The position numbers were made by a program. Shown one piece after another: positions 1-3,000 of a stretch of DNA of 64,000 bases. The stretch is from Escherichia coli (GTDB taxonomy: Bacteria; Pseudomonadota; Gammaproteobacteria; Enterobacterales; Enterobacteriaceae). Positions within the stretch are counted from its first letter, which is position 1, and the number at the start of each line of letters is the position of its first letter. The stretch lies in the NCBI RefSeq assembly GCF_030013205.1, contig NZ_CP122648.1. One strand, written 5' to 3'.

Positions 1-3000
1 GCTGAACTCGGTATTTGCGATAAGATGTTGACAGAGGATAAATTCATAACTAACAGTTATTGTTTCTGTATCCAGTTGATTTTCAATGATCTGGTGATGA
101 ATAGCCGATAAAAAAGCGCCTCTTAGTTGTATATAATAATACTTTTCCCATCTACCAAATCTATTTATTCGATAGAAGTCAAATTCCATAAATAATTGTT
201 CATTATTGTTAATGGAATTAATAAATAATGGGGTGCTTTTATCAATTAATTTACAAAATGTTATACCATGGAACTGTGAACCAAGCCCCGTATTAGTAAT
301 ACTATTTAAGAGTGAGAATGTAAATATTTCATCCTCATGCCCGCTCTGCCAGCGATTACCTGTAGACTCAGAAGTCCCACAACCTGCGGAGATGCTTCCT
401 TGTTGTTCTCCCGTTACTGTCAGGTAAACAATATTACTCATCCCTGAAAAGTCCTTTTATGGCATGCTATTTTATCAATGGCAATATTATGCTTGTTAAT
501 TGTTATTTATTTACGCCAGGAAATTGTAGGCGTATATATTAAAAAATAAAATATTACACTTTAGGAAGTAATTATGAGTTAAATCTCAATATATGTATTG
601 GGCAAATAAATACCTTAAAGGAAGGTATGCAGATTTTGAATGACACCCTTTTTCCATCTCAGAAAAAGGGCACTATCTTACTTCACCCGCGCCATATAAT
701 ACGCATCGACATATTCACCATTACGAAAAGCGTAATTTTTACCGGTGCCTTCAATCTCAAAGCCGAATTTTTTATAGACTGCGATTGCCGGGGCGTTATC
801 CGCAAACACCGTCAACTCAATACGATCTATCCGTAGCCAGTTATCGCACATTTCAATCAATTCGCGGATCAGGGCGCTGGCGACGCCGCGGTTGTGCCAG
901 CGGGAGTCAACACAGATACCAAAAGTTGCAACATGACTGCGGCGTGGGCCTTGATAAGCCTCAATGAAAAGATGACCCACCACGATGCCATCAATGCAGG
1001 CAACCAGTTGTTTAAACCCCTGGCGATCTTTCAATCTTTCTGGCCACCAGCCTTCCGAAGGATGAGGTAGTTGTAGTGTGTTGCAATACACCTCCGGCTG
1101 GGCGTGAATCTGCCTGATGGCCTCGTAATCCCGTGTTTCTGCGTGGCGTATCACTATCTCACTCATTCCTTTGTCCTCTTTGGGGTAAATGTCCCTTTCA
1201 ACATCATTGACTTTCAAATGCGAGTCAAATGCATTTTTTTGCAAAAAGTGTTGGACAAGTGCGAATGAGAATGATTATTATTGTCTCGCGATCAGGAAGA
1301 CCCTCGCGGAGAACCTGAAAGCACGACATTGCTCACATTGCTTCCAGTATTACTTAGCCAGCCGGGTGCTGGCTTTTTTTTTGATCTTTCGTTTTCAATT
1401 TATCCACGGGAAGTGCTTGTGTTCGTTATGCGCACTCCAGTAGGAACCACGTCCGCTTTGCGCTAAGGTGTAAATAACCACCTTAATAAGGACGAAATCA
1501 TGGTCATAAACTGCGCCTTTATTGGCTTCGGCAAAAGCACCACCCGTTACCATCTGCCGTATGTACTTAACCGCAAGGATAGCTGGCATGTCGCGCATAT
1601 TTTTCGTCGCCATGCGAAGCCGGAAGAACAGGCTCCCATTTATTCCCATATCCATTTCACCAGCGATCTCGACGAAGTACTAAACGATCCCGATGTTAAG
1701 CTGGTTGTGGTCTGCACCCATGCAGACAGCCACTTCGAGTACGCGAAGCGCGCGCTGGAAGCCGGGAAAAATGTGCTGGTCGAAAAACCGTTCACCCCAA
1801 CGCTTGCCCAGGCGAAGGAGCTGTTTGCGTTGGCGAAAAGCAAAGGGCTGACCGTCACGCCGTATCAGAATCGTCGCTTTGATTCCTGCTTCCTGACAGC
1901 GAAAAAAGCGATTGAAAGCGGCAAGCTTGGAGAGATTGTCGAAGTGGAAAGCCATTTTGACTATTACCGCCCGGTGGCAGAAACCAAACCTGGACTGCCG
2001 CAGGATGGCGCGTTTTATGGCCTTGGTGTGCATACGATGGACCAGATTATTTCTCTGTTCGGTCGCCCGGATCACGTCGCTTATGACATCCGCAGCCTGC
2101 GTAATAAAGCCAACCCGGACGACACCTTTGAAGCGCAGCTGTTTTATGGCGACCTGAAAGCCATCGTCAAAACCAGCCATCTGGTGAAAATCGATTATCC
2201 GAAATTTATCGTTCACGGTAAGAAAGGTTCGTTTATTAAATACGGTATCGACCAGCAGGAAACCAGCCTCAAGGCTAATATTATGCCGGGCGAACCGGGA
2301 TTCGCGGCGGATGATTCGGTCGGTGTGCTGGAGTATGTCAATGACGAGGGTGTGACGGTCAGAGAAGAGATGAAGCCGGAGATGGGCGATTACGGGCGCG
2401 TTTATGATGCGTTGTATCAAACCATCACCAACGGTGCGCCAAATTACGTCAAGGAATCTGAAGTTCTTACCAATCTGGAAATCCTTGAACGAGGATTTGA
2501 GCAAGCCTCTCCCTCCACAGTGACTCTCGCGAAGTAAGTTTGATGGCCCCTCGAATAGTTCAATTTTTTTGAACAGAGGGGTCAATTTTCACCCTCTATC
2601 ATCCCAGGCAGATCGGGTCCACACTAAGCCCATCGAAAACATTCAGGGGGCGAATACAAATGATCTACTTACGCAAAGCAAATGAACGTGGTCATGCAAA
2701 TCATGGCTGGCTGGACTCCTGGCATACTTTCTCTTTTGCCAACTATTACGACCCGAACTTTATGGGTTTCTCCGCGCTGCGCGTGATTAACGACGACGTG
2801 ATTGAAGCAGGGCAGGGCTTCGGCACTCACCCACATAAAGATATGGAAATTTTGACCTACGTGCTGGAAGGTACTGTTGAGCACCAGGACAGCATGGGCA
2901 ATAAAGAGCAGGTTCCGGCGGGTGAGTTCCAGATTATGAGTGCGGGTACGGGTATTCGTCACTCAGAGTACAACCCAAGCAGCACCGAGCGTCTGCATCT

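Follow-up and report, generated by a model that had tools for sequence, protein, structure and literature searches.

The yhhZ locus at the window edge

The stretch of Escherichia coli DNA considered here (64,000 nucleotides of contig NZ_CP122648.1, RefSeq assembly GCF_030013205.1; hereafter the window) begins inside yhhZ, whose product carries an N-terminal Hcp domain, the domain of the tube protein from type VI secretion systems (T6SS), and which is followed beyond the window edge by its partner gene yrhA. On the minus strand, positions 441 to 1 form an open frame of 147 codons (translated as MSNIVYLTVTGEQQGS…ANTEFS) with no stop before the window edge, and its ATG at 441 is the start annotated by RefSeq in genomes identical to the window. 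The fragment matches the Pfam family T6SS_HCP (PF05638) with a score of 49.5 bits (cut-off 23.5; E = 6.6e-13). It lies in markedly AT-rich DNA: the guanine–cytosine (GC) content of 1–677 is 0.331 compared with 0.512 for 678–64000, only 0.46% of all 677-nucleotide segments are as AT-rich, and the other comparable stretches are limited to a fimbrial island at ~17.8–24.6 kb and a brief segment close to 35.7 kb. The genes flanking yhhZ inside the window include yhhY, yhhX, yhhW, gntRKU, asd and glgBXCAP, and no T6SS core gene is annotated across this span in a genome that shares 99.997% identity with the full 64 kb. The gene sits between yhhY and ggt, neither in nor next to a T6SS cluster, and is therefore an orphan. 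The sequence-only reading of this stretch had described an orphan Hcp-like gene in an AT-rich patch, and the profile search, the base composition and the annotation all agree with that description. The features at the window edge are as follows.

1..441, minus strand: 5′ 441 nucleotides of yhhZ (hcp-ET1; 'tssD' in RefSeq), codons 1–147, covering the whole Hcp/TssD domain; 738 further nucleotides lie beyond position 1
442..677, minus strand: yhhZ leader and promoter region, the left end of an AT-rich islet; GC ~0.29–0.33, with no counterpart in empty-site genomes
645..671, minus strand: hairpin with an 11-bp stem just 3′ of the yhhY stop, at the islet edge; RNA fold of −15 kcal/mol, z = −2.36 against shuffles
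678..680, no strand assigned: left boundary of the yhhZ–yrhA–yrhD islet, which is the yhhY stop codon; blastn comparison of empty and occupied sites

The remainder of the gene can be read from closely related genomes. Over 64 kb, a single mismatch and a single 1-nucleotide gap separate the window from strain K_EC180 (99.997% identity, blastn). The first 2.6 kb of the window show 100% identity to 17 complete genomes from porcine E. coli of the enterotoxigenic (ETEC) or Shiga toxin-producing (STEC) type, O139:H1 included, and positions 1–2600 match strain W13-16 exactly. K_EC180 and W13-16 both possess an intact yhhZ of 1179 nucleotides, annotated as 'tssD / Hcp1 family T6SS effector' and encoding 392 amino acids, and the two proteins differ at one residue (…KR[P/S]SKD…). 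The gene order past yhhZ in both strains is yrhA (495 nucleotides, 164 amino acids, overlapping the yhhZ stop by 4 nucleotides), a 126-nucleotide yrhD-like open reading frame (ORF), yrhB and the convergent ggt. Full-length YhhZ falls in the same 90% identity cluster as UniProt YHHZ_ECOLI; among the 13,190 sequences of this cluster, the representative and several of the members sampled have a length of 392 amino acids. The earlier suggestion that such an orphan Hcp might carry a C-terminal toxin, with an immunity candidate downstream, is thus borne out in genomes identical or nearly identical at the locus, where the ORF continues undisrupted past the edge, keeps its Hcp match, ends in an HNH module and is overlapped at its stop by yrhA. 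Both what was observed and how it was interpreted hold up, yet the gene was already known as the long-annotated E. coli yhhZ.

Domain architecture of YhhZ

YhhZ is composed of an Hcp domain (residues 1–147), a helical linker (~148–242) and a colicin/pyocin-like HNH DNase core (~243–385), and its 392 amino acids compare with 160–172 for canonical Hcp. The full-length protein matches NCBIfam TIGR03344 at 1.3e-34 (119.6 bits; cut-off 58.9), and solved Hcp structures are matched at ~1e-10 to 1e-12 (for example, 3he1 at 2.6e-12). Its Hcp domain is 38% identical to the 160-residue Hcp of the core operon of T6SS2, which is the cluster described in the literature as lying at the tRNA-Asp gene aspV, in the yaf region, and consisting of two divergent operons; identity to the spike-operon Hcp is 30%. 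This closer relationship to the core-operon Hcp is consistent with T6SS2 dependence.

The C-terminal part carries a Pfam HNH match at residues 322–343 (E = 0.0055, below cut-off). Homologs were collected for residues 148–392, and across the resulting alignment of 21 trimmed sequences (55–71% identity), H323, H324, D329, D330, N334, N338 and H348 are invariant. In the AlphaFold2 model, the last ~140 residues have predicted local distance difference test (pLDDT) values of 83–96, and the preceding helical linker is less certain. The best Foldseek matches of the model in the PDB are all bacteriocin DNases, namely pyocin S2, pyocin AP41 and colicins E7, E9 and E2. The first of these is pyocin S2 (4qko; E = 2.7e-3, probability 1.0), and the top 10 are without exception pyocin or colicin DNases, with probabilities of ~1.0, root-mean-square deviations of 2.4–3.0 Å over 77–82 columns and E-values of 3e-3 to 2e-2. 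A sequence profile similarly matches the ColE7 DNase (E = 5e-4), aligning the HH and N of YhhZ with H544–H545 and N560 of ColE7. The C-terminal domain is accordingly modelled as a beta-beta-alpha-metal fold.

The likeness to colicins E7, E9 and E2 and pyocins S2 and AP41 extends to a common motif (K-E-F..R-K-x-F...HH...N...H) and to the arrangement of a toxin gene with a small immunity gene immediately downstream. However, identity is only 17–28% over ~80 aligned residues, YrhA is unrelated in sequence to Im7 and Im9, and delivery of YhhZ would rely on its Hcp domain, whereas colicins and pyocins use receptor-binding and translocation domains. Usp and the other 'evolved Hcp' proteins (Hcp-ET2–5), compared here by description, also combine an N-terminal Hcp-like domain, a C-terminal toxin and downstream immunity genes; they are set apart from YhhZ by their toxins (pyocin S3-like, colicin DNase, Tle1 lipase and papain-like peptidase) and by their loci. 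A deep profile search recovers the 140-residue core of YhhZ as the C-terminal module of hundreds of proteins of 140–1261 amino acids, joined to N-termini that include LXG (type VII secretion system), PT-TG, MuF, Hcp and DUF8093. The occurrence of one core under so many N-termini is the behaviour of a polymorphic toxin domain.

Among these carriers, DUF8093 (PF26362) is fused to the HNH module, with a YrhA homolog alongside, in Enterobacter, Leclercia, Franconibacter, Pantoea, Serratia and Erwinia. The linker and HNH parts of these proteins are 55–69% identical to those of YhhZ and begin at the same junction (…NSKA-GRLLAAGG…). The DUF8093 region itself (the N-terminal ~165 residues) has no detectable similarity to Hcp, nor any by sequence to a PDB structure. 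In Enterobacter, the fusion gene is part of an orphan two-gene unit among housekeeping genes, as yhhZ–yrhA is, but at a different chromosomal site: the loci (for example, CP056148.1 3082818–3084480) lie between thiM/thiD and sucrose-utilisation genes, beside an integration hotspot. No T6SS-family Pfam domain was recorded within 10 kb in the Enterobacter loci examined.

YrhA and neighbouring immunity candidates

YrhA (164 amino acids) matches the NCBIfam YrhA family (NF038335) at 3.4e-37, and the family accompanies the toxin module across genera. Citrobacter koseri carries an Hcp-HNH gene and a YrhA homolog (69% identity) at the same yhhY/ggt site, and in Enterobacter, where the linker and HNH are fused to DUF8093 at another chromosomal site, a YrhA homolog (62% identity) lies directly downstream. 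This co-inheritance of yrhA with the toxin module, whatever the carrier or genus, together with the 4-nucleotide overlap, is the genomic signature of a cognate immunity gene. YrhA would accordingly be the immunity protein of YhhZ, a role for which neutralisation is known only from the secondary literature. Some sources name YrhA a 'SMI1/KNR4 family' protein; the lineage YrhA has no Pfam match, and neither YrhA nor its profile found more than chance-level matches, such as antibody chains, when searched against PDB sequences.

The neighbouring yrhB was considered as a second immunity gene, as its product matches Imm35 (PF15567) with 77.6 bits against a cut-off of 27.5. It was rejected as a member of the islet because its GC content is host-like (0.45), it is kept in genomes that do not carry yhhZ–yrhA and it is absent in C. 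koseri. The ORF between yrhA and yrhB varies among strains: it encodes a 41-residue 'hypothetical' protein in the lineage and the 51-residue YrhD in K-12 and 55989, and it is a pseudogene in A24 and 144. This variable ORF is unlikely to be a conserved gene.

Correspondence with Hcp-ET1 and ETI1

YhhZ has been described as an 'evolved Hcp' (PMC2907695) and placed in group 32 of the His-Me finger nucleases (PMC5714182). Reference 92 of the latter paper was considered as a published link between YhhZ and Hcp-ET1 and rejected, as it cites a MIX-effector paper. Hcp-ET1 of STEC (strains STEC004, C227-11 and 55989) is presented as an Hcp-HNH DNase in reviews and in a preprint that summarise Ma et al. 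(2017, Virulence 8:1189). According to these secondary sources, Hcp-ET1 inhibits competitors in a T6SS2-dependent manner, T6SS1 does not deliver it, and ETI1, which is encoded downstream, neutralises it. The locus tag given for Hcp-ET1 in a review (AAF13_24945) leads to the yhhY–ggt interval of C227-11, where AAF13_RS24945 is yrhA and AAF13_RS24950 is the Hcp-HNH gene. Strain 55989 has a protein identical to the C227-11 Hcp-HNH at the same locus, and this protein is 97% identical to the lineage YhhZ (98% for YrhA). The mapping of the locus tag and these identities at a common locus identify YhhZ and YrhA with the Hcp-ET1/ETI1 pair. The Hcp-ET1/ETI1 strains differ from the window lineage in their secretion apparatus, as 55989 has a complete T6SS2, whereas tssM, tssA, vasI, vgrG and part of tssH are missing from the lineage.

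K-12 offers a second comparison. Its YhhZ (b3442) and YrhA occupy the same yhhY–ggt locus, and YhhZ again has 392 residues with ~97% identity and 11 amino acid differences from the lineage protein. In K-12, yrhA is cut by IS1E to 138 of 164 codons while yhhZ is intact; the lineage, by contrast, has an intact yrhA together with a T6SS2 remnant. K-12 is reported in a review to have no T6SS. Either the truncated YrhA still protects K-12 or its yhhZ is silent. Two promoters, yhhZp5 and yhhZp7, have been described upstream of K-12 yhhZ (PMC12428005), and 'promoter islands' inside both yhhZ and yrhA are listed in a section on H-NS binding (PMC3661553). A sigma-70 consensus scan of 442–677 on the yhhZ strand found no convincing match, and the number of matches was below the shuffle expectation.

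Structure, distribution and selection of the islet

An AT-rich islet of 2.35 kb has been inserted between yhhY and yrhB/ggt, and positions 1–677 are its in-window portion. When the occupied site is aligned by blastn with the empty site of SCEC020026 (yhhY–yrhB–ggt), homology stops with the yhhY stop codon and is picked up again 16 bp upstream of yrhB. The islet thus delimited spans 2350 bp at 32% GC (0.34 for yhhZ and 0.28 for yrhA) and contains yhhZ, yrhA and the tiny yrhD, and the empty site has 95 unrelated bp in its place. The AT-rich DNA of yhhZ looks horizontally acquired. The hairpin at 645..671 is probably a terminator or stabiliser of the yhhY transcript that has no U-tract; a terminator scan did not call it.

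A side observation concerns the neighbouring yhhY. The 5′ two-thirds of this gene (window ~880–1180, minus strand) show only ~81–82% identity over 300 nucleotides to K-12 and empty-site alleles, within surrounding DNA that is 96–99% identical, and the ORF is intact (162 amino acids). This looks like an imported recombination patch. Its use as a marker of islet presence or absence was rejected, as the divergence is peculiar to the lineage's yhhY allele, which differs equally from occupied-site K-12 and from empty-site genomes.

The yhhZ–yrhA pair is present at 80% coverage or more in 3767 of 5426 complete E. coli genomes (~69%), K-12 included, and the islet is absent from ~30%; in some genomes it has been lost or disrupted, in several cases beside an IS1 copy. 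A near-full-length tssM of the T6SS2 type was found in 2796 of the same 5426 genomes (~52%). It follows that at least ~970 complete genomes, or at least about a quarter of the carriers, have yhhZ–yrhA but no near-full-length T6SS2-type tssM.

Selection on the pair differs with the scale of comparison. In the comparison of E. coli with C. koseri, saturation is reached at synonymous sites, and the ratio of nonsynonymous to synonymous substitution rates (dN/dS) is ~0.17 for the HNH part. Within E. coli, the corresponding polymorphism ratio (pN/pS), calculated pairwise from small counts, is 0.3–1.35 for yhhZ, 0.09–0.57 for yrhA and 0–0.38 for yrhB. The lineage and 55989 alleles of yhhZ differ by 12 nonsynonymous and 3 synonymous changes (7 and 0 in the linker and HNH part). 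All five divergent alleles examined are full-length with intact catalytic residues. The substitution pattern within E. coli is compatible with a toxin under looser constraint than its immunity gene.

State of T6SS2 in the lineage

With the intact T6SS2 cluster of strain 55989 as the reference, the aspV cluster of K_EC180 shows two deletions. One, of 7.0 kb, took vasI, tssA and tssM entirely, most of the VasL gene and the 3′ end of tssH, and the other, of ~5.2 kb, removed hcp, vgrG and the 5′ part of Rhs; tagH, in addition, has an internal stop. W13-16, isolated from a wild boar in France, has the same T6SS2 lesions. The decayed cluster lies at 3950000–3973400 of NZ_CP062203.1 and is also found in NZ_CP080235.1, the isolates coming from Korea and France. 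The genes tssB, C, E, F, G, J, K and L and one canonical hcp are still intact. With tssM, tssA, vasI, vgrG and the tssH 3′ end gone and tagH interrupted, YhhZ is probably undeliverable by the reported route, and the effector is probably stranded in the lineage.

No T6SS is present at pheU or selC in the lineage, and pheU holds only a VasL fragment among phage-defence genes. A nucleotide search with the lineage tssBC found no second tssBC locus, each of 17 lineage genomes having a single one; the same search detects paralogs at 60–80% and divergent T6SS types in 580 other genomes. The pheU island (NZ_CP062203.1) carries anti-phage genes (Qat, and a nucleotide-binding protein with a SLATT partner), an Ag43-type autotransporter and the isolated VasL fragment, which may be the remnant of a former T6SS island.

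Proposed role and alternative explanations

We consider it highly probable that window positions 1–441 are the 5′ end of yhhZ as an Hcp-ET1 ortholog, and that the best explanation of the locus combines this identity with the following mechanism and with the stranding of the effector. In T6SS2-proficient strains, YhhZ would become part of the T6SS2 tube through its Hcp domain and be shot into neighbouring bacteria, as the secondary literature has it; inside the target, the HNH domain would degrade DNA, while YrhA (ETI1) would protect the producer and its kin. In the lineage, where T6SS2 is broken, yhhZ–yrhA would persist as a stranded toxin–immunity cassette, much as in K-12, and YrhA may retain its value as protection from attacking kin armed with Hcp-ET1.

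Several points weigh against this explanation. The window itself holds only the Hcp part, and the remainder is inferred from near-identical genomes. For the nuclease, curated Pfam thresholds are not reached (PF01844 at 17.3 bits compared with 21.4; PF21431 at E = 0.25 and 11.9 bits compared with 27), the Foldseek E-values are marginal (3e-3 to 1e-1), and on inspection no counterpart of ColE7 H573, the last metal-binding His, was seen in YhhZ, with which the term 'degenerate HNH' used for the domain in an older paper (PMC2907695) agrees. For the immunity protein, SUKH matches among 19 YrhA homologs are weak (SUKH_6 in two members, best E = 3e-4; SMI1_KNR4, 0.021; SUKH_5, 0.053), and the AlphaFold2 model from the 19-sequence alignment reaches a pLDDT of only 46. 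The published Hcp-ET1 tag is offset by one gene from the RefSeq numbering, in which RS24945 is yrhA and RS24950 the Hcp gene, and DNase activity, neutralisation by ETI1 and T6SS2 dependence are all taken from reviews and a preprint only. The statement that the lineage has no other T6SS draws on three inspected sites (aspV, pheU and selC) and one nucleotide-level search. Lastly, constraint on yhhZ within the species is weak, which may mean that its function is eroding.

If its role were independent of the T6SS, the pair could be a cassette for addiction or stabilisation, act as a suicide nuclease triggered by stress or phage, or supply a toxin exported by another route; Hcp and DUF8093 would then be alternative carriers, and the immunity gene may be held as a shield against kin. 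Such a role would explain why yhhZ has stayed intact in K-12, reported to be without a T6SS, why the pair is kept in a lineage with a dead T6SS2 and in the ~970 or more complete genomes that have no near-full-length tssM of this type, and why the DUF8093 fusions occur, in the Enterobacter loci examined, with no T6SS domain recorded within 10 kb. However, the Hcp domain is conserved and closest to that of T6SS2, T6SS2-dependent antibacterial activity has been reported for the ortholog, and orphan effectors are commonly retained after loss of the apparatus, their immunity remaining useful. A PADLOC scan of YhhZ, YrhA, YrhB and one DUF8093 protein gave no match, so that no defence model in that collection covers YhhZ, YrhA or the DUF8093 protein. 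K-12, moreover, tolerates an IS1-truncated yrhA, which argues for a toxin that is silent rather than active in the K-12 cell. We therefore regard a T6SS-independent role as unlikely. It is more doubtful still that the pair is a live weapon in the lineage, delivered through a different T6SS or through leftover T6SS2 components complemented by genes elsewhere. Both genes are intact with conserved catalytic residues, eight tss genes (tssB, C, E, F, G, J, K and L) and a canonical hcp survive, and site inspection covered aspV, pheU and selC only; but both lineage members examined have lost tssM, tssA and vgrG and retain a truncated tssH, only one tssBC-like locus was found per genome in the 17 lineage genomes, and T6SS1 is said, at second hand, not to deliver Hcp-ET1.

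That yhhZ is a decaying relic, on its way to becoming a pseudogene and without a present function in E. coli, is marginally less probable again. This reading would account for the near-neutral pattern of some pairs (the 12:3 ratio against 55989, and pN/pS values of up to 1.35), for the deletions and disruptions of the islet, some of them IS1-associated, and its absence from ~30% of genomes, and for the many carriers in which the cognate T6SS2 is absent or decayed. Against it, the ORF is full-length in five of five divergent alleles with invariant catalytic residues, 392 residues is the length of the representative and several sampled members of the 13,190-sequence cluster, and purifying selection is clear at the Escherichia–Citrobacter scale, with yrhA the more constrained gene. 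That yhhZ encodes no more than a structural Hcp paralog, serving as a spare tube subunit with no effector function, might be supposed from the window, where only the Hcp domain is visible, and from RefSeq records that read 'type VI secretion system tube protein TssD'; the 245-residue C-terminal extension, with its HNH signature and colicin-DNase-like fold, is found in genomes identical to the window and leaves this reading practically no room.

The edge ORF is a well-annotated and widespread gene, already known as yhhZ and paired with yrhA, whose ortholog has been characterised as a T6SS2 effector. What is added here is that T6SS2 has been lost across the lineage alongside an intact pair and that other genera have the toxin module in a form carried by DUF8093. 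The porcine ETEC/O139:H1 lineage, sampled globally (Korea, Japan and France among others), combines the intact pair with shared T6SS2-disabling deletions and represents a natural instance of a 'gunless' effector, and at the species level, the pair (69%) is commoner than the T6SS2 core gene tssM (~52%). These observations could inform why orphan T6SS effectors persist, and they hold nothing surprising to a specialist.

Other features of the window

Three further features were noted in the window. The small RNA RyhB lies at 1317–1381 on the plus strand (Rfam RF00057, 83 bits), with a terminator at 1356–1374, between yhhY and yhhX as in K-12. A chaperone–usher fimbrial operon occupies 18652–25202 (plus strand) between glgP and glpD; it is AT-rich and includes several pseudogenes, with a truncated major subunit and a frameshifted chaperone followed by a fragment, and the same site in strain 55989 holds different genes, encoding a PstS-family protein and three hypothetical proteins. 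Just upstream of glpD, positions 25229–25271 (plus strand) match the Rfam small RNA ES036 (CssrF) with 43.6 bits, against a gathering score of 37.6.

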